From: a virus
Lineage: Duplodnaviria; Heunggongvirae; Uroviricota; Caudoviricetes
Virus record (IMG/VR): IMGVR_UViG_2627853868_000010
Reading direction: 5' to 3' (one strand)
Length of the DNA stretch: 11,563 nt
This document shows positions 1-11,563 of this stretch, piece after piece. A program made the translations under genes and the position numbers. Under the pieces are notes generated by a model, which was given only the letters and a program-made list of their open reading frames with translations, did no database searches and was not told where the DNA came from. How positions within the stretch are numbered: position 1 is the stretch's first letter; each line of letters opens with the position of its first letter.

Positions 1-303
1 TTAACGCGTATTTTTCAGCGACTCCTGTGCAAAATACGCTGTTGCTTTTTTTAATATATCTCGCTCAAGGCGAGCTTCATTTAACGCCTTACGCAGTTGC
101 AGAATTTCAGATTCCAGTTCAGCCACCGTGCGGGAACCAGGAGTACCGAGCCCTTTTCTGGCGGCGGTAACCCATTGTCCTAAAGTGCCTTCAGGAAGGG
201 ATAATCGGGAAGCGCCTTCACTGATCGAAAGTTGATTTTCAAGAACCGTTCTGACAGCTTCGGCTTTGAACTCTTTAGAGTAACGTTGGTTTTTTCTGCT
301 CAT
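1..303 (-). CDS. IS3-family transposase OrfA (helix-turn-helix plus leucine-zipper region)
   Basis: 100-aa ORF MSRKNQRYSKEFKAEAV...ILKKATAYFA, identical to the OrfA at 3758-4060; the C-terminal ILKKATAYFA motif is typical of IS3-family OrfA. Confidence 0.85.
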   Translation of the reverse strand: MSRKNQRYSKEFKAEAVRTVLENQLSISEGASRLSLPEGTLGQWVTAARKGLGTPGSRTVAELESEILQLRKALNEARLERDILKKATAYFAQESLKNTR

Positions 304-367
304 TATTAGCTCCTTCTGATGCCATTCTATTTCAGGAAGGAGTGTCCGTTAAACTCAGGCTACCTCA
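1..367 (-). mobile_element. IS3-family insertion sequence (IS600-like), partial copy; the rest of the element lies left of the window
   Basis: Positions 1-367 mirror 3694-4060 in reverse complement: same terminus TGAGGTAGCCTGAGTTTAACGGACACTCC (element end at 367) and an identical 100-aa OrfA. The window starts exactly at the OrfA stop codon. Confidence 0.85.
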
Positions 368-2436: not shown

Positions 2437-2451
2437 GGTAATGACTCCAAC

Positions 2452-2955
2452 TTATTGATAGTGTTTTATGTTCAGATAATGCCCGATGACTTTGTCATGC
2501 AGCTCCACCGATTTTGAGAACGACAGCGACTTCCGTCCCAGCCGTGCCAGGTGCTGCCTCAGATTCAGGTTATGCCGCTCAATTCGCTGCGTATATCGCT
2601 TGCTGATTACGTGCAGCTTTCCCTTCAGGCGGGATTCATACAGTGGCCAGCCATCCGTCATCCATATCACCACGTCAAAGGGTGACAGCAAGCTCATAAG
2701 ACGCCCCAGCGTCGCCATAGTGCGTTCACCGAATACGTGCGCAACAACCGTCTTCCGGAGCCTGTCATACGCGTAAAACAGCCAGCGCTGGCGCGATTTA
2801 GCCCCGACGTATCCCCACTGTTCGTCCATTTCCGCGCAGACGATGACGTCACTGCCCGGCTGTATGCGCGAGGTTACCGACTGCGGCCTGAGTTTTTTAA
2901 GTGACGTAAAATCGTGTTGAGGCTAACGCCCATAATGCGTGCAGTTGCCCGGCAT
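2452..2955 (-). CDS. insB: IS1 InsB frame (made as the InsAB' fusion by -1 frameshift)
   Basis: The track ORF 2452-2829 encodes the canonical InsB C-terminal 125 aa ([16 protein letters not shown]...NIKHYQ). The frame extends upstream to about 2955. An in-frame TAG replaces the Trp codon of HYGRW, but this lies upstream of the frameshift site and need not inactivate InsAB'. Confidence 0.7.
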
Positions 2956-3149
2956 CCAACGCCATTCATGGCCATATCAATAATTTTCTGGTGCGTACCG
3001 GGTTGAGAAGCGGTGTAAGTGAACTGCAGTTGCCATGTTTTACGGCAGTGAGAGCAGAGATAGCGCTGATGTCCGGCAGTGCTTTTGCCGTTACGCACCA
3101 CCCCGTCAGTAGCTGAACAGGAGGGACAGCTGATAGAAACAGAAGCCAC
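2874..3149 (-). CDS. insA: IS1 InsA (transposition repressor / N-terminal part of InsAB' transposase)
   Basis: 91-aa [43 protein letters not shown]... (zinc-finger CPSC/CSHC); ends in the A6C frameshift window. Differs from the other copy at several residues (e.g. GVSLNT vs GVGLNT). Confidence 0.9.
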
Positions 3150-3204
3150 TGGAGCACCTCAAAAACACCATCATACACTAAATCAGTAAGTTGGCAGCAT
3201 CACC

Positions 3205-3213
3205 AAGAAGTTC
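3205..3213. repeat. 9-bp target-site duplication AAGAAGTTC of IS1 (right copy)
   Basis: Same 9-mer as 2428-2436. Confidence 0.9.
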
Positions 3214-3757
3214 GACAATATAAGGATCCGCCCCCATATCATTAAGCGTAGTGGAAAATGTGCGCCTGAAATCATGTATGCACCACAAGCCATTAGTATC
3301 ATGACCAAGACGCCTGCATATTCTGTTTGCAGCCCCTGTTATTGTCGCCCTTTGCAAAGCACAACCGACAACATAACCGCGATTTTTTGTTTCTGCGTAA
3401 AGATTAACGATCCATTGTTTTATTCCGTCAGGAACAGGCCTTACTATAGCCTCCTTGTTTTTGCTGTGCTCTTTTGGGACTGTCCATACCCAGTTTTTTA
3501 AATCCCATTCGTCCCAGGTGGATAGCCTCGCCTCCTGCTGTCGGCAACCAAACACCAGGCAGATAACCATTATTCTTCGGTTATATATTGATGACAGAGT
3601 TAGCAAATTATTACCGTAAGCATAAGACCATACATCAGCGGTTTCATTGATATTAAGAACGCGATCCCTTATACCGGATGAGCGCCCGACATATGAGGTA
3701 GCCTGAGTTTAACGGACACTCCTTCCTGAAATAGAATGGCATCAGAAGGAGCTAATA

Positions 3758-4060
3758 ATGAGCAGAAAAAACCAACGTTACTCTAAAGAGTTCAAAGCCG
3801 AAGCTGTCAGAACGGTTCTTGAAAATCAACTTTCGATCAGTGAAGGCGCTTCCCGATTATCCCTTCCTGAAGGCACTTTAGGACAATGGGTTACCGCCGC
3901 CAGAAAAGGGCTCGGTACTCCTGGTTCCCGCACGGTGGCTGAACTGGAATCTGAAATTCTGCAACTGCGTAAGGCGTTAAATGAAGCTCGCCTTGAGCGA
4001 GATATATTAAAAAAAGCAACAGCGTATTTTGCACAGGAGTCGCTGAAAAATACGCGTTAA
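3758..4060 (+). CDS. IS3-family transposase OrfA
   Basis: 100-aa ORF identical to the one at 1-303; AGGAG RBS upstream of the ATG. Confidence 0.9.
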   Translation: MSRKNQRYSKEFKAEAVRTVLENQLSISEGASRLSLPEGTLGQWVTAARKGLGTPGSRTVAELESEILQLRKALNEARLERDILKKATAYFAQESLKNTR

Positions 4061-4095
4061 TCGAACAATGGCGACAACAATTTCCCATTGAAGCG

Positions 4096-4914
4096 ATGTG
4101 TCAGGTATTTGGTGTATCCAGGAGCGGTTATTACAACTGGGTACAGCATGAACCCTCAGACAGAAAACAAAGTGATGAGCGGCTAAAACTGGAGATTAAG
4201 GTGGCACATATCCGCACTCGCGAAACATATGGAACCCGGCGGCTCCAGACGGAGCTGGCAGAGAATGGCATCATCGTTGGTCGTGACCGACTGGCACGTC
4301 TTCGTAAGGAGCTAAGGCTACGCTGTAAGCAGAAACGCAAGTTCAGAGCGACTACGAACCCGAACCACAATCTGCCAGTTGCGCCAAATCTGCTGAACCA
4401 GACGTTCGCTCCTACAGCACCAAATCAGGTCTGGGTGGCGGACCTGACGTATGTTGCCACACAGGAGGGATGGTTGTACCTCGCTGGCATCAAAGATGTT
4501 TATACGTGCGAAATTGTCGGCTACGCCATGGGAGAGCGCATGACAAAAGAGCTGACAGGTAAAGCCCTGTTTATGGCGCTCAGGAGCCAGCGCCCACCTG
4601 CCGGGCTAATCCACCACTCTGATCGAGGTTCACAGTACTGCGCATACGATTACCGGGTCATACAGGAGCAGTCTGGTCTGAAAACATCAATGTCGCGTAA
4701 AGGTCACTGTTACGACAACGCTCCGATGGAAAGCTTCTGGGGAACGCTGAAAAATGAGAGCCTGAGCCACTATCGTTTTAATAACCGGGATGAAGCCATC
4801 TCAGTAATACGGGAATACATTGAGATTTTCTACAATCGTCAGCGTCGTCACTCTCGTCTGGGGAATATCTCCCCGGCAGCCTTCAGGGAAAAATATCATC
4901 AGATGGCTGCTTAA
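4096..4914 (+). CDS. IS3-family transposase OrfB (DDE integrase-like catalytic domain; probably made as OrfAB by -1 frameshift)
   Basis: 272-aa ORF with DDE-type motifs (VWVADLTYV, HHSDRGSQY, CYDNAPMESFWGTLK); its frame begins just after the OrfA stop. Confidence 0.85.
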   Translation: MCQVFGVSRSGYYNWVQHEPSDRKQSDERLKLEIKVAHIRTRETYGTRRLQTELAENGIIVGRDRLARLRKELRLRCKQKRKFRATTNPNHNLPVAPNLLNQTFAPTAPNQVWVADLTYVATQEGWLYLAGIKDVYTCEIVGYAMGERMTKELTGKALFMALRSQRPPAGLIHHSDRGSQYCAYDYRVIQEQSGLKTSMSRKGHCYDNAPMESFWGTLKNESLSHYRFNNRDEAISVIREYIEIFYNRQRRHSRLGNISPAAFREKYHQMAA

Positions 4915-4938
4915 AAAAAGAACAAATGGTAGTGTCCG

Positions 4939-6327
4939 CTATTGCCAGTACACCTCACAGTACATTGACCAGGATTTCGAGCTGTTATTTTTCTCAATTC
5001 GCAGAGCTTTATTGCCGCTGTCATCAACCAGTGTGCGTCTGCCATACATACCGTCCCAGCCATAAGGTTTCAGCTGATTGTCTGTAGCTTTTTTGGCATC
5101 GTAAAAAATTACAGACTCTGAGGTGGTAACCGGCCTGTCTGGAACAACCACCCCGGCAGTACCATTAACAAACGCAGAAGACTTACCCGCGCAGCTCAGA
5201 ATCGCCGTTGCCAGACGGTCGGAAATAATCCCACGGCGAGCCCATGAACTGAAATGGCTCGCCCTGTCCTGTGACGTCCAGGTGGCTGAGCTGTCACGCC
5301 ATTTCGAACCGTAATAACCGATACCCGGAATGTCCGGGTCTTCTTCCGGTTTGTTCGTCGGCACATTCACCCCGTTCTCATCGGTCATGAACGGTACGAA
5401 ATGGATATTCTTTTCCGTTTTATTTTTATAGCTGCCGTACACCGTCTGGTACGTGGATTCGTTCTTCTGCTTCCAGAAATACGTCGTGTCCCCGCATATC
5501 CAGGGAACACCGCCAGCAGAGCCACCGACGCACTGGCCTGCCATATCCGCCAGGTCTGCACGGAATTTATCAACCAGCGCACCAAACTGTGCGGCATGAT
5601 TTGCCGGCGTACCGCCAAAATCAAATTCCCCCTGCATCCACACCACGGCAAACAGCACATTTTTCGGGTTCTTCTCCAGTGCCGCTTTTGTTCGACCGAT
5701 AAGGTCCTTATACAGCGGCTTGTCCACACCCCAGCGGGTTGAATTCTCCGAGGCACCACTCGCGTCACTGTATGTGCCATCAGCTCCGGTGGTGAACGCT
5801 GAACCACCACGACAGCATGGAACCAGCAGAATGCCCGCATTCGCCGGTATAAACGGCAGCAGTTTTTTGGCGATATGCAGCCCCTGCCCCACGGTTCCGT
5901 ACTGCCCCTTTGACAGGTCCGCTTTCGGATGGTTAAGACGGCTCATGTCCTGCACATCATGCAGACAATGGTCCGCCGGAATGATGTCGTTATATTTGCA
6001 TGCTGCACCGCCCGGTGTCACCGTACTGCGACGCGCCAGTTGCTTAATACGCGGGTCCGGACGGTCATATGTCCCCGGCAGCGGAAGGCCTTCACCATAC
6101 GACATGCCGTTTGACTGCCCTGCCAGAACCACAACAAAGTAATACTCCGGGTCGCTGGTGGCGCTGATTACTGCACCTTCTGCTGCAATCGCCTGCATCA
6201 GAGTATAAGGGGTTATGGCCACCGGACTACCAAACGGCTGCCAGCCCTCTTTCAGTTTATGTGTCAGCTTTTCCGCAAGATCTGACGGCGACGCCGCCCT
6301 GACAACATCATAGTGTTTAAAAGCCAT
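4939..6327 (-). CDS. nanS: Prophage sialate O-acetylesterase (NanS-p-like; DUF1737 N-domain plus SGNH/DUF303 esterase domain), 3'-truncated by IS600
   Basis: 462-aa ORF with GGAGG RBS. Motifs VLAGQSNGMSYGEGLPLP, RIKQLARRSTVTPGG, YGTVGQ, LLPFIP, VPCCRGGSAFT, SHFSSWARRGIISDR match NanS/YjhS-type esterases as I recall them. The last 6 codons (CEVYWQ) and the stop are read from the IS600 end (4939-4957). Confidence 0.8.
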   Translation of the reverse strand: MAFKHYDVVRAASPSDLAEKLTHKLKEGWQPFGSPVAITPYTLMQAIAAEGAVISATSDPEYYFVVVLAGQSNGMSYGEGLPLPGTYDRPDPRIKQLARRSTVTPGGAACKYNDIIPADHCLHDVQDMSRLNHPKADLSKGQYGTVGQGLHIAKKLLPFIPANAGILLVPCCRGGSAFTTGADGTYSDASGASENSTRWGVDKPLYKDLIGRTKAALEKNPKNVLFAVVWMQGEFDFGGTPANHAAQFGALVDKFRADLADMAGQCVGGSAGGVPWICGDTTYFWKQKNESTYQTVYGSYKNKTEKNIHFVPFMTDENGVNVPTNKPEEDPDIPGIGYYGSKWRDSSATWTSQDRASHFSSWARRGIISDRLATAILSCAGKSSAFVNGTAGVVVPDRPVTTSESVIFYDAKKATDNQLKPYGWDGMYGRRTLVDDSGNKALRIEKNNSSKSWSMYCEVYWQ

Positions 6328-6521
6328 GAATCCTCCCGGCCGGGATAATATTGTGAGTAAAATGAGGAGCGGGCTGAAGTCCGGAAGTTACAGGACAATG
6401 GCAGAAGAGAGACGACAGCCCGCAATTCGAAAAAGACCGCGCAGTTGCGCAGAGTGATTACTATGGGGTATTATTCGCCAGCTGAAATATTACTTCACGT
6501 TTTGTTGTTTATTCCTTGCCG

Positions 6522-6549
6522 CCCGCGTCTCCCAGCGCGGGCTTTTTTT
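6522..6549 (+). terminator. Intrinsic terminator-like hairpin plus T-tract on the + strand
   Basis: CCCGCG-TCTCCCAG-CGCGGG followed by CTTTTTTT. Confidence 0.4.
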
Positions 6550-6776
6550 GCCCACAAGAAAGCCCCTCCGGAGAGGGGCTGGAGAGTGGCGCTATGTGCC
6601 ATTGCATGGTGCCGGGTGCCTCCCGGTGAATTCAGTACCAGCACCTGAATCCGCGATTATCCCATATACCTACTCGCTGATTGCCCCTCCGCACAGGGGG
6701 ATTCACCATGCCAGTTTCTTTTAACAAACTCCCCGCAAACCAGACAACAGTCAACCGTCTGAATTGTGAGACATTT

Positions 6777-6801
6777 AAAAAAAAAGCCCGCAAAAGCGAG
6801 C
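6777..6801 (-). terminator. Strong Rho-independent terminator just downstream of the tRNA cluster (minus strand)
   Basis: On the minus strand, GCTCGC-TTTT-GCGGGC hairpin (one G-U pair) followed by nine T, starting 15 nt after the 3' end of tRNA-Arg(UCU). Confidence 0.55.
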
Positions 6802-6816
6802 CAGGGAAAATAAGTG

Positions 6817-6893
6817 TGGCGCGTTGTACTGGATTCGAACCAGTGACCGATTGCTTAGAAGGCAATTGCTCTGTCCGGCTGAGCTAACAACGC
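6817..6893 (-). tRNA. argO: tRNA-Arg (anticodon UCU), prophage-encoded
   Basis: Minus-strand 77-nt cloverleaf GCGTTGT-TA-GCTC-AGCCGGACA-GAGC-A-ATTGC-CTTCTAA-GCAAT-CGGTC-ACTGG-TTCGAAT-CCAGT-ACAACGC-G-CCA. Perfect 7-bp acceptor stem, encoded CCA. Gene symbol assigned by position in the cluster. Confidence 0.85.
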
Positions 6894-6906
6894 ATGATGC
6901 AGATAA

Positions 6907-6983
6907 TGGACCGCCATCGGGGACTTGAACCCCGCGCAGCCAGCTTCGAAGGCTGGCGCTCTTTCCTGATGAGCTAATGGCGG
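6907..6983 (-). tRNA. argN: tRNA-Arg (anticodon UCG), prophage-encoded
   Basis: Minus-strand 77-nt cloverleaf CCGCCAT-TA-GCTC-ATCAGGAAA-GAGC-G-CCAGC-CTTCGAA-GCTGG-CTGCG-CGGGG-TTCAAGT-CCCCG-ATGGCGG-T-CCA. Gene symbol assigned by position in the cluster. Confidence 0.8.
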
Positions 6984-6990
6984 TATGTGA

Positions 6991-7066
6991 TGGTGGCCCT
7001 TGCTGGATTTGAACCAGCGACCTGGCGATTATGAGTCGCTCGCTCTCACCACTGAGCTAAAGGGCC
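6991..7066 (-). tRNA. ileZ: tRNA-Ile2 (anticodon CAU, ileX-like; reads AUA after lysidine modification), prophage-encoded
   Basis: Minus-strand 76-nt sequence GGCCCTTTAGCTCAGTGGTGAGAGCGAGCGACTCATAATCGCCAGGTCGCTGGTTCAAATCCAGCAAGGGCCACCA, near-identical to E. coli ileX as I recall it; anticodon loop CTCATAA. Confidence 0.85.
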
Positions 7067-7106: not shown

Positions 7107-8124
7107 TCATCCGTTCTGGCTGACTAAATCCTGTACTTCCCGAACCGTCTGCTCAAAACGTTCAGTCTCCAGCTCAACGCCAATTGCACGACGCCCGAGC
7201 GCCAGTGCCGCTTTCACTGTCGAACCCGACCCCATGAAAAAATCTGCAATCAGGTCACCCGGACGACTGCTAGCGCTGATTATCTGCTGCAGCATTTCTG
7301 CCGGTTTTTCGCACGGATGTTTCCCGGGATAGAACTGCACCGGTTTATGCGTCCACACATCGGTATACGGCACCTGCACCGTCACGCCAAAATACCGCCG
7401 CAGATGTTTATATTCACTCAGCAGCTCCGCATACTGCCGGTTCAGTGAGGTATACGTATCCACCAGCTGGTGGTGGAGCTTTTCCAGTTCACCACGCCGA
7501 TGCTTCTCTTCTGCCACCCGGGCAAACAGCGCCTGTAATTTCAGATAATCGCTTTCATTCGGCAACTGCCACTGACTGGCACTGAACCAGTGCGACACCA
7601 TGTTTTTCTTTCCTGTGGCATCTGCAATCTGTTTTGCCGTTATCCCCAGGGCAGCTCGCGCATCACGAAAGTAAGAAATCAGCGGGGCCATCACATGCTG
7701 TTTCAGTGCACTGCCCTTCGCCGCATACCCGGCATCTTTCGGACGATACGGCCCCTGATAATGTTCCGCGAACAGAATGCGCTCTGTGGCGGGGAAATAC
7801 GCCCGCAGGCTTTCCTTGTTGCATCCGTTCCAGCGTCCGGACGGCTTCGCCCAGATAATATGGTTCAGCACACTGAAGCGTTCACGCATCATGATTTCGA
7901 TATCAGATGCCAGGCGATGACCACAGAACAGGTAAAGACTTCCGGCAGGTTTCAGCACCCGCCAGAACTGCGCCAGACACTGGTCCAGCCACTTCAGGTA
8001 ATCATCGTCGCCCTTCCACTGGTTATCCCAGCCCTCAGGCTTCACTTTAAAGTACGGCGGGTCCGTGACTATCAGGTCAACAGAATTTTCGGGTAACGAC
8101 CAGATAAATTCCAGGCAGTCGGCG
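7107..8124 (-). CDS. DNA N6-adenine/N4-cytosine methyltransferase (beta-class; DPPY precedes FxGxG), prophage Dam-like orphan MTase; native 5' end removed by IS1
   Basis: Native coding sequence starts at the IS1 junction with ADCLEFIWSLPENSVDLIVTDPPYF (motif IV) and ends with DLIADFFMGSGST...GRRAIGVELE (motif I). No native start codon remains; the frame stays open upstream through IS1/IS2 sequence to 8282. Confidence 0.8.
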
Positions 8125-8142
8125 GGTAATGACTCCAACTTA

Positions 8143-8147
8143 CTGAT
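8143..8147. repeat. 5-bp target-site duplication CTGAT of IS2 (left copy; right copy at 9479-9483)
   Basis: CTGAT immediately flanks both IS2 ends; both copies lie within IS1 terminal sequence. Confidence 0.85.
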
Positions 8148-8238
8148 TAGACTGGCCCCCTGAATCTCCAGACAACCAGTATCACTTAAATAAGTGATAG
8201 TCTTAATACTAGTTTTTAGACTAGTCATTGGAGTACAG

Positions 8239-8604
8239 ATGATTGATGTCTTAGGGCCGGAGAAACGCAGACGGCGTACCACACAGGAAAAGATCGCAAT
8301 TGTTCAGCAGAGCTTTGAACCGGGGATGACGGTCTCCCTCGTTGCCCGGCAACATGGTGTAGCAGCCAGCCAGTTATTTCTCTGGCGTAAGCAATACCAG
8401 GAAGGAAGTCTTACTGCTGTGGCCGCCGGAGAACAGGTTGTTCCTGCCTCTGAACTTGCTGCCGCCATGAAGCAGATTAAAGAACTCCAGCGCCTGCTCG
8501 GCAAGAAAACGATGGAAAATGAACTCCTCAAAGAAGCCGTTGAATATGGACGGGCAAAAAAGTGGATAGCGCACGCGCCCTTATTGCCCGGGGATGGGGA
8601 GTAA
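8239..8604 (+). CDS. insC: IS2 transposase OrfA (InsC)
   Basis: [56 protein letters not shown]... matches IS2 InsC as recalled; ATG at 8239. Confidence 0.9.
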
Positions 8605-9467
8605 GCTTAGTCAGCCGTTGTCTCCGGGTGTCGCGTGCGCAGTTGCACGTCATTCTCAGACGAACCGATGACTGGATGGATGGCCGCCGCAGTCGTCACA
8701 CTGATGATACGGATGTGCTTCTCCGTATACACCATGTTATCGGAGAGCTGCCCACGTATGGTTATCGTCGGGTATGGGCGCTGCTTCGCAGACAGGCAGA
8801 ACTTGATGGTATGCCTGCGATCAATGCCAAACGTGTTTACCGGATCATGCGCCAGAATGCGCTGTTGCTTGAGCGAAAACCTGCTGTACCGCCATCGAAA
8901 CGGGCACATACAGGCAGAGTGGCCGTGAAAGAAAGCAATCAGCGATGGTGCTCTGACGGGTTCGAGTTCTGCTGTGATAACGGAGAGAGACTGCGTGTCA
9001 CGTTCGCGCTGGACTGCTGTGATCGTGAGGCACTGCACTGGGCGGTGACTACCGGCGGCTTCAACAGTGAAACAGTACAGGACGTCATGCTGGGAGCGGT
9101 GGAACGCCGCTTCGGCAACGATCTTCCGTCGTCTCCAGTGGAGTGGCTGACGGATAATGGTTCATGCTACCGGGCTAATGAAACACGCCAGTTCGCCCGG
9201 ATGTTGGGACTTGAACCGAAGAACACGGCGGTGCGGAGTCCGGAGAGTAACGGAATAGCAGAGAGCTTCGTGAAAACGATAAAGCGTGACTACATCAGTA
9301 TCATGCCCAAACCAGACGGGTTAACGGCAGCAAAGAACCTTGCAGAGGCGTTCGAGCATTATAACGAATGGCATCCGCATAGTGCGCTGGGTTATCGCTC
9401 GCCACGGGAATATCTGCGGCAGCGGGCTTGTAATGGGTTAAGTGATAACAGATGTCTGGAAATATAG
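8562..9467 (+). CDS. insD: IS2 transposase OrfB (InsD; DDE catalytic domain)
   Basis: 301-aa [33 protein letters not shown]...WLTDNGSCY...[12 protein letters not shown], matching IS2 InsD as recalled; overlaps insC in the -1 frame. Confidence 0.9.
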
Positions 9468-9979
9468 GGGCAAATCCACTGATAGTGTTTTATGTTCAGA
9501 TAATGCCCGATGACCTTGTCATGCAGCTCCACCGATTTTGAGAACGACAGTGACTTCCGTCCCAGCCTTGCCAGATGTTGTCTCAGATTCAGATTATGTC
9601 GCTCAATGCGCTGAGTGTAACGCTTGCTGATAACGTGCAGCTTTCCCTTCAGGCGTGATTCATACAGCGGCCAGCCATCCGTCATCCATACCACGACCTC
9701 AAAGGCCGACAGCAGGCTCAGAAGACGCTCCAGTGTGGCCAGAGTGCGTTCACCGAAGACGTGCGCCACAACCGTCCTCCGTATCCTGTCATACGCGTAA
9801 AACAGCCAGCGCTGACGTGATTTAGCACCGACGTAGCCCCACTGTTCGTCCATTTCAGCGCAGACAATCACATCACTGCCCGGTTGTATGCGCGAGGTTA
9901 CCGACTGCGGCCTGAGTTTTTTAAGTGACGTAAAACCGTGTTGAGGCCAACGCCCATAATGCGTGCACTGGCGCGACAT
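9392..9979 (-). CDS. insB: IS1 InsB (copy 2) with its stop codon lost to the IS2 insertion; the ORF reads 31 extra codons into IS2
   Basis: 195-aa ORF ...[44 protein letters not shown]...NIKHYQ followed by [28 protein letters not shown] read from the IS2 right end. The native InsB part is 9479-9979. Confidence 0.8.
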
Positions 9980-10173
9980 CCGACGCCATTCATGGCCATA
10001 TCAATGATTTTCTGGTGCGTACCGGGCTGAGAGGCGGTGTAAGTGAACTGTAGTTGCCATGTTTTACGGCAATGAGAGCAGAGATAGCGCTGATGTCCGG
10101 CAGTGCTTTTGCCGTTACGCACCACGCCTTCAGTAGCGGAGCAGGAAGGACATCTGATGGAAATGGAAGCCAC
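9898..10173 (-). CDS. insA: IS1 InsA (copy 2, divergent isoform)
   Basis: 91-aa [43 protein letters not shown]...; differs from the copy at 2874-3149 at several residues. Confidence 0.9.
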
Positions 10174-10228
10174 GCAAGCACCTTAAAATCACCATCATAC
10201 ACTAAATCAGTAAGTTGGCAGCATTACC

Positions 10229-10476
10229 CGCTCGACGAGTGGAAACCAAAACGGTTCAGTCTCCCAATAACAAACACTACCCTGGTGAAATACGGAAAAC
10301 TAGGATACATCGTTCCAAGACCACAAAAAATTCGTGGGCGTTGGCTGATAGATCGCCGAGCAGTATTTGTTGGGCCTGGTGAAACGGGAATTGCGCCGGA
10401 AATTCATACTGGCGATGATGATGCACTGAAGGAGATTTTAACTCATGTCACCGAGGCCACAAAAAAACAGCACTGA
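10229..10476 (+). CDS. xis: Lambda-type excisionase (Xis)-like, 5'-truncated at the IS1 junction
   Basis: Native sequence from 10229 reads (P)LDEWKPKRFSLPITNTTLVKYGKLGYIVPRPQKIRGRWLIDRRAVFV..., which aligns with lambda Xis (MYLTLQEWNARQRRPRSLETVRRWVRECRIFPPPVKDGREYLF) as recalled. About 4 N-terminal codons and the start are missing. The 3' end overlaps the int start as in lambda. Confidence 0.55.
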
Positions 10477-11563
10477 CGTAGCCGGTCTTTACGAAAAGTT
10501 TGATCGCAGAACTGGCAGAGTTTACTACCAGTATAAAAATCCTGTGACTGGAAAATTTCACGGACTCGGAACAGACAAAGGTAAGGCAGAAAAAATCGCT
10601 TCCACAGCCAATCAGCGAATAGCTGCAGCAGAAGCTGAATATTTCATGCGCAAAATTGATGAAAGTCCGTCAGCAACAAAACGTCGGGGTATCAGATTAA
10701 AGGCATGGGTTGATCGATATCTGAAAATACAGGACACGCGACTGAAAAATGGAGATATTGCAGCTACAACTCACAAAGAAAAAACTCGAATGGCTGCATA
10801 CCTAGTTTCCCGTCTGGGAAACCACCCATTGAAAGAACTGGAAGTAAGAGACTTTGCATTAATACTGGATGAGTGGCTGGATAAAGACATGGTCAGCACA
10901 GCGAGAGTAAATCGTGGATTATGGGTTGATATTTATAAAGAAGCACAGCATGCAGGGGAAGTTCCTCCTGGATGGAATCCTCCGGAGGCTACCCGTAAAC
11001 CGATCCCTAAAGTAACCAGAGCCAGGCTCACCATGGAAGACTGGCAAAAAATTTACAATGCAACGCCTGAAAAACACTTTATCCGTAACGCAATGCTTCT
11101 TGCGATTGTTACTGGTCAGCGCCGTGATGACATTTGCCACATGCGTTTTTCAGATGTGTGGAACGAACACTTGCATATCACCCAGGGAAAAACCGGAATG
11201 CGTCTGGCGTTACCGCTTACACTACGCTGTGATGCCATTGGGATAACGTTAAAAGAAGTTATTGATGGGTGCCGAGACAGAATATTAAGTCCATATCTAA
11301 TCCATAGTCGGCACCAGAAACAACCGAAGCCGATGAGTAAAGACAACCTGAGCGACTACTTTGCCAAAGCACGGGATCTGGCTGGGATAATTCCACCAGC
11401 AGGAAAAACTCCGCCAACATTTCATGAACAACGCTCTCTATCAGAACGGCTGTACCGTGCACAGGGTATCGATACAAAAACATTACTAGGACATAAAGTC
11501 CAGGCAACCACCGATCGCTATAACGATACTCGAGGTCAGGAATGGGTTAAGCTGGTTATTTGA
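10445..11563 (+). CDS. int: Lambda-family tyrosine integrase (site-specific recombinase), complete
   Basis: 372-aa ORF with AGGAG RBS. N-terminal YYQYKNPVTGKFHGLGTDK, central LAIVTGQRRDDICHMRFSDV, and C-terminal PPTFHEQRSLSERLY...LLGHKVQATTDRYNDTRGQEWVKLVI match lambda/HK022 Int (R, H-x-x-R, LLGH, catalytic Y) as recalled. The window ends at its stop codon. Confidence 0.9.
   Translation: MSPRPQKNSTDVAGLYEKFDRRTGRVYYQYKNPVTGKFHGLGTDKGKAEKIASTANQRIAAAEAEYFMRKIDESPSATKRRGIRLKAWVDRYLKIQDTRLKNGDIAATTHKEKTRMAAYLVSRLGNHPLKELEVRDFALILDEWLDKDMVSTARVNRGLWVDIYKEAQHAGEVPPGWNPPEATRKPIPKVTRARLTMEDWQKIYNATPEKHFIRNAMLLAIVTGQRRDDICHMRFSDVWNEHLHITQGKTGMRLALPLTLRCDAIGITLKEVIDGCRDRILSPYLIHSRHQKQPKPMSKDNLSDYFAKARDLAGIIPPAGKTPPTFHEQRSLSERLYRAQGIDTKTLLGHKVQATTDRYNDTRGQEWVKLVI

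Follow-up and report, generated by a model that had tools for sequence, protein, structure and literature searches.

The 11,563-nt stretch of DNA analysed here (IMG/VR virus record IMGVR_UViG_2627853868_000010, referred to below in its full length as the window) most likely carries the remains of a lambdoid prophage that sat between potB and potC in an ancestor of Shigella boydii type, whose early region (approximately 12–15 kb) was deleted up to a copy of the insertion sequence (IS) IS1, and which was then altered further by IS2 and IS600 events. An IS1-mediated deletion of the early, immunity and replication region had already been proposed in a first-pass annotation of the window; the deletion as such stands, given the gene truncations, the intact relatives and the prophage of Escherichia coli AF14 described below, whereas the mediating role of IS1, like the descent of both prophage fragments from a single prophage and the order of events, is what we infer from this evidence. 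The features at the joint are as follows:

7107–8124, minus strand: phage N6/N4 DNA methylase gene (PF01555, E 2e-43), lacking its first 41 nt and the upstream region.
8125 and 10228: termini of the second IS1 copy, present as two pieces (8125–8147 and 9484–10228) and spanning 2104 bp overall.
8125–8147, no strand assigned: 23-bp end of this IS1, cut off from the remaining element by IS2; left flank CAGTCGGCG.
8148–9478, plus strand: complete IS2 of 1331 bp (orfA 8239–8604, orfB 8562–9467) lying inside the IS1.
9479–10228, minus strand: remainder of the second IS1 copy, with insA at 9898–10173; right flank CGCTCGACG.
10229–10476, plus strand: truncated xis, lacking its first 22 nt (7 codons including the start codon, and 1 nt) together with the ribosome-binding site.
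10445–11563, plus strand: int, a full-length lambda-type tyrosine integrase of 372 amino acids (aa) with arm-DNA-binding and catalytic domains.

IS1 is an element of 768 bp with terminal inverted repeats of approximately 23 bp and the genes insA and insB. The second copy in the window reaches 2104 bp only because the 1331-bp IS2 is nested 23 bp from one of its ends; with IS2 subtracted, exactly 768 bp remain, with the ends GGTAATGACTCC... and ...GGCAGCATTACC and open reading frames (ORFs) for InsA and DDE_Tnp_IS1. Both breakpoints can be read directly: the methylase gene (minus strand) ends at one IS1 terminus and xis (plus strand) begins at the other, each having lost its 5' end (41 nt and 22 nt, respectively), and the 9-mers on the two sides, CAGTCGGCG (8116–8124) and CGCTCGACG (10229–10237), do not match, so that the non-matching flanks and the two 5'-truncated divergent genes first reported for this copy are both borne out. 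The absence of the 9-bp target duplication that accompanies a simple insertion marks it as a rearrangement joint. When IS1 promotes an adjacent deletion, or when two IS1 copies recombine with each other, an IS1 stays at the joint, the endpoints lie at its termini and the 9-bp duplication is lost; endpoints at both termini combined with a missing target duplication are therefore the signature of one or the other of these two routes, which cannot be separated by sequence alone. A mosaic test against the first IS1 copy of the window (approximately 91% identical) gave no sign of a hybrid structure, since the differences are evenly spread and the second copy is 100% identical to an uninterrupted IS1 elsewhere in a sister genome (L009); this evenness does not discriminate between the two deletion routes. 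The existence of that identical intact copy indicates that the junction IS1 variant has been active in this lineage.

The history that would account for this arrangement begins with the integration of a lambdoid prophage at TGAATAAGAAGGTG, the 3' end of potB, in the S. boydii-type ancestor. A deletion between xis codon 8 and methylase codon 14, proceeding either as an IS1-promoted adjacent deletion or as recombination between two direct IS1 copies, would then have removed approximately 12–15 kb comprising recE/exo, dicB/kil, the immunity region, the replication genes, nin/rusA and Q. Later, IS2 would have transposed into the junction IS1 with a clean 5-bp duplication, and IS600 would have replaced everything beyond the middle of an esterase gene, eliminating the lysis, head and tail genes and the potB-side attachment (att) site from the locus. 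What would be left are two fragments totalling approximately 4.5 kb, esterase'-tRNAs-'methylase and 'xis-int. The strands fit a simple collinear deletion, with xis and int on one and the methylase, tRNAs and esterase on the other.

The architecture of relatives shows directly what lies between the two breakpoints where nothing has been lost. In ON470612 and ON470619, which have the same xis-int, xis is preceded by recE, dicB, cI, cII, O, rusA and Q, and EC931, an intact ompW prophage that shares the late module of the window, has int, xis, recE, dicB, cI/cro, O, Q, methylase, three tRNAs, iraM and esterase in this order. The two breakpoints are 14.6 kb apart in EC931 and an estimated 12.7 kb or so apart on an early region of the ON470612 type, and thus the tens of kb initially supposed to separate int-xis from the Q/late region are reduced to 12–15 kb. 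The xis-int module itself is present in 1,635 of 5,426 complete E. coli genomes.

The most informative relative is E. coli AF14, where a single prophage fills the interval between potC and potB. Read from potC, its contents are int and xis, then IS1A flanked by truncated recE and methylase genes (in that order), then three tRNAs, iraM and the esterase, and finally the genes for lysis, head and tail. AF14 is also the closest match to the tRNA/methylase segment of the window (98.3%, versus 95.6–97.4% for ompW prophages). The breakpoints of its deletion lie inside recE and deeper in the methylase gene than in the window; as they can neither be derived from nor have given rise to those of the window, and as the IS1 variant differs, the AF14 deletion is independent. 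Early-region deletion at IS1 thus appears to be recurrent in prophages of this type, the window and, separately, AF14 providing an example of convergent IS1-associated early-region loss. The AF14 isolate (L003, 12308–15515), with its IS1A-associated early-region deletion in a potB/potC prophage, is a human bloodstream E. coli.

Within Shigella, the joint is shared. From position 445 onward, the window has a 100% identical counterpart in the draft contig AMJS01000078, and CP001063, listed as S. boydii CDC 3083-94 (PMC2974192), is 99.9% identical to it. The IS1/xis junction was directly observed in all ten Shigella assemblies examined, including L005 (PUGO01000793.1, 9544–10032), in which just the last 93 bp of IS1 are left ahead of the same junction. 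Upstream of this IS1 remnant, L005 has an IS66 fragment and nrdA-nrdB-yfaE, an unrelated context, which indicates that this assembly lost the methylase block in an additional rearrangement. Being shared by ten assemblies, L005 among them, the deletion must be old in the lineage, and for the same reason the junction constitutes a clean, datable marker of the S. boydii-type lineage.

The integration site was located by aligning the int-potC spacer, the uninterrupted potB-potC region of E. coli K-12 and both termini of the AF14 prophage. An exact-protein lookup of Int gave ten Shigella loci, in all of which potC begins 166 bp past int, and int adjoins a 14-bp att core, TGAATAAGAAGGTG, which is shared with uninterrupted potB-potC and lies at the 3' end of potB, next to and upstream of potC, 145 nt beyond the end of the window. 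The core is common to attB of K-12, attR of AF14 and the int-potC spacer of S. boydii (L013, 11264–11277). The expectation that att would be found just right of the window was thus correct as to position, whereas the tRNA suggested as its possible location was not, att being the 3' end of potB. Insertion of lambdoid and Stx (Shiga toxin) phages at potC has been described in the literature (PMC8065619). No second copy of the core occurs within the window, even when 2 mismatches are allowed, and where a second att and potB would stand at the other end of the prophage, this locus has IS600 and a P4-type island.

To the right of the window (L006–L014, 11286–14100), int is followed by potC and potD without potA or potB, meaning that the potABCD operon is broken. 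In addition, potD is broken into two ORFs in L006 and L014, most of these loci (L006–L014) have a split nagK, and ymfA-ycfZ, which lies between potD and cobB in K-12 and AF14, is missing from L006–L014. These gene losses on the right of the remnant are typical Shigella gene decay.

Several observations weigh against the descent of both fragments from one potB/potC prophage by a deletion. The best full-length methylase matches (97.5–99.3%) are in ompW prophages with a different integrase, an intact potC prophage with this exact methylase allele was not found, and the search, which included complete E. coli genomes, turned up no intermediate in which IS1 had simply inserted at one or the other site. 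Moreover, IS elements have extensively reshuffled Shigella chromosomes, and on its left the methylase block likewise ends in an IS junction, that of IS600 with an unrelated P4-type island. Apart from the missing intermediate, these points favour a chimeric junction, in which homologous recombination between IS1 copies of two different prophages or loci, through an inversion or translocation, would have joined a methylase-tRNA-esterase block, e.g., of the ompW type, to a xis-int stump at potC; so does the fact that sister assemblies (L010, L005, L014) show an IS-mediated inversion and different left neighbours. We nevertheless regard such an origin as unlikely, because the orientation is exactly the one that a collinear deletion would leave, and because the potB/potC prophage of AF14 carries the same module and is the closest relative in the shared segment. 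Lambdoid modules are also mosaic, so that the best match of a single gene says little about integration site. Had there been an inversion or translocation, a second IS1 with the reciprocal flanks would be expected, i.e., one with CAGTCGGCGTTGAT... directly after it or ...GATAACGCTCGACG directly before it.

It is very improbable that IS1 was a bystander which inserted later at the scar of an unrelated deletion: deletions are common in cryptic prophages, although nothing specific speaks for this course here, a simple insertion would have left a 9-bp duplication as it did at the first copy, and only chance would explain why the two truncated genes stop precisely at IS1 termini. That the methylase gene and xis are natural neighbours between which nothing was deleted, for which no support was found, has hardly any chance of being true, both genes being truncated and every examined relative with intact copies, compared as the first-pass annotation had advised, having a full early region between them. 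A potB/potC prophage that lost its early region up to IS1 therefore remains the preferred reading.

Two candidates for ancestral or intermediate states were rejected. The E. coli O121 prophage, the best full-length methylase match, occupies the ompW site and has a different integrase, which disqualifies it as the intact ancestor, and H31 (E. coli SY033), which has IS1 and an IS3-family element near the methylase gene, is a differently scrambled prophage. When the 60 best methylase records were crossed with the 60 best xis-int records, two genomes appeared in both, with the loci 189 kb or several Mb apart. A scan of genome contigs for the IS1/xis junction returned 0 matches, which carries no information because the collection has one genome per species, with Shigella probably represented only through E. 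coli; neither IS1 junction occurs in any of the 5,426 complete E. coli genomes. The left-junction query gave no return of any kind, probably because the final 50 nt of the methylase gene contain mismatches and so offer no shared 28-nt word.

Of the two genes at the right of the joint, xis is defective. Its intact counterpart in ON470612 (99.6% identical) encodes MSEQYLITLDEW... and is 89 aa long, while the gene in the window has no complete frame with a start of its own, the ATG and ribosome-binding site having been replaced by IS1; its overlap with the start of int (10445–10476) is kept. A loss of about 4 codons had been given originally; the truncation is real, and comparison with the intact gene sets it at 7 codons and 1 nt. 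The lower count probably came from an alignment to the Pfam Exc/lambda Xis profile, which begins at profile position 5. Against this profile the truncated xis scores 18.3 bits, below the cutoff of 23, and the intact homologue 23.2 bits, just over it. The intact gene is annotated as an excisionase in RefSeq, and a sequence search of intact Xis against solved structures gave no significant match to any solved Xis structure.

The integrase, by comparison, is intact, as had been claimed: its 372 aa contain both lambda-type domains, PF09003 (E 1.6e-20, residues 1–64) and PF00589 (E 1.5e-18, residues 194–363), each above the curated cutoff. It aligns to the lambda Int structure 1z1b with E 4e-54 over residues 26–371, an alignment in which the motifs TGQRRDD, QGKTG, FHEQRS, LLGHK and TDRY pair with TGQRVGD, QSKTG, FHELRS, LLGHK and ASQY of lambda. 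These motifs hold what we take to be the catalytic residues R212, K235, H308, R311, H333 and Y342 (R-K-H-R-H-Y), which by this alignment appear to be conserved. A single residue (R6Q) differs from the copies in complete E. coli prophages.

The remnant cannot excise: there is no second att site nearby, IS600 having cut off the late half, and no native Xis, pL, cII or cI. The idea that an intact int with a crippled xis means a locked-in remnant was right as to the outcome and less so as to the cause, since it is the missing other end of the prophage and the missing regulators, rather than xis, that chiefly account for it.

The IS2 within the junction IS1 was absent from the first-pass description. 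It belongs to the IS3 family and has the expected length of 1331 bp, a 33-nt inverted repeat, the domains PF01527 and PF00665/PF13683 and a 5-bp duplication, CTGAT, at 8143–8147 and 9479–9483, and matches an annotated E. coli IS2 at 99.5% identity. As the duplicated sequence is IS1 sequence, IS2 must have arrived later than IS1. The insertion parts one IS1 terminal repeat from the remaining element and probably immobilises the junction IS1.

The rest of the window, read from left to right, includes:

2437–3204: first IS1 copy, a simple insertion with a perfect 9-bp duplication (AAGAAGTTC) inside a P4-type integrase gene.
3694–4957, plus strand: IS600 of 1264 bp (orfA 3758–4060, orfB 4096–4914), with non-matching 3-bp flanks (ATA and CAG).
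4958–6327, minus strand: nanS-p-type sialate O-acetylesterase gene with DUF1737 and SASA domains, 3'-truncated by IS600.
6328–6816, no strand assigned: empty cargo slot between the tRNAs and the esterase.
6817–7066, minus strand: three phage tRNA genes, namely Arg-tct (6817–6893), Arg-tcg (6907–6983) and one with a CAT anticodon (6991–7066).

IS600 cuts the esterase at 4958, the left boundary of the lambdoid remnant, and links a 5'-truncated P4-type integrase fragment (3205–3693) to the 3'-truncated esterase; with its mismatched flanks and the unrelated pieces that it joins, it marks another rearrangement junction, and it is here that the remnant truly ends on the left. A partial second IS600 stands at the start of the window (1–367, corresponding to 3694–4060), inverted relative to the full copy. 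In the sister assembly CP026762 (L010, 1–3616), the segment of approximately 3.3 kb between the IS600 copies, a P4-type island that contains genes for AlpA and Bro-N, lies in the opposite orientation, pointing to IS600-mediated inversion within the lineage. The difference of approximately 9% between the two IS1 copies shows that two IS1 variants coexist in the genome.

The methylase-tRNA-esterase block is 92–97% identical to that of Stx2 phages. The 41 nt missing from the methylase gene are counted against a full-length Stx-phage homologue; the Pfam catalytic domain of the methylase is complete, and the esterase remnant retains approximately 456 codons (full-length homologues have 617–653 aa). 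The CAT-anticodon tRNA is assigned to Met by ARAGORN and to Ile by the RefSeq annotation. In relatives the cargo slot is occupied by stxAB (Stx phages) or iraM (AF14 and EC931). A 391-aa ORF (7107–8282, minus strand) runs from a GTG in the left end of IS2 through the 23-bp IS1 stub and in frame into the methylase gene, whose annotated products range from 352 to 391 aa. With three intact rare-codon tRNAs and a methylase that is complete in its catalytic domain, the block could conceivably be a module under selection, its ORF driven by an outward promoter borne on the IS, although this seems quite doubtful to us; if true, the Shigella lineage would gain an active orphan DNA methylase. A promoter and terminator scan of 7900–10600 found 3 promoter-like sites, versus 2.2 expected by chance, none of them directed outward toward xis/int or the methylase gene.

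In conclusion, this is a standard IS-eroded cryptic lambdoid prophage, all of whose parts are known elements and whose sequence is present in public genomes. The correct annotation is a non-excisable potB/potC lambdoid prophage remnant with nested IS1::IS2 and IS600 junctions; its significance beyond annotation is small and it opens no new question.

Known systems offer close parallels. The xis-int module is 99.6–99.8% identical to that of the potB/potC prophages ON470612, ON470619 and AF14 and uses the same att site, but those prophages are complete (AF14 being deleted only internally) and reach potB, whereas the window holds two small fragments and no potB side. A defective Stx1 prophage of 13.7 kb lies between sapC and ycjW in Shigella dysenteriae type 1 (PMC7819885). 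Like the remnant in the window, it is lambdoid, bounded and interrupted by IS elements including IS600, without structural genes and conserved in its lineage; a piece of the integrase and some of the Q-proximal late region are left, and it is not inducible. It differs in its site, its integrase and the presence of stx, the cargo slot in the window being empty and the integrase full length. The early regions of the intact relatives resemble those of Rac and Qin (recE, dicB, ydfC). Rac, DLP12 and Qin, the cryptic lambdoid prophages of K-12, are poorly excisable or non-excisable and keep int together with scattered late or early genes, and they are larger than the present remnant, with deletion joints that are not defined by IS1 in this way. 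The joint itself is the same as in classical IS1 deletions, from which nothing sets it apart.

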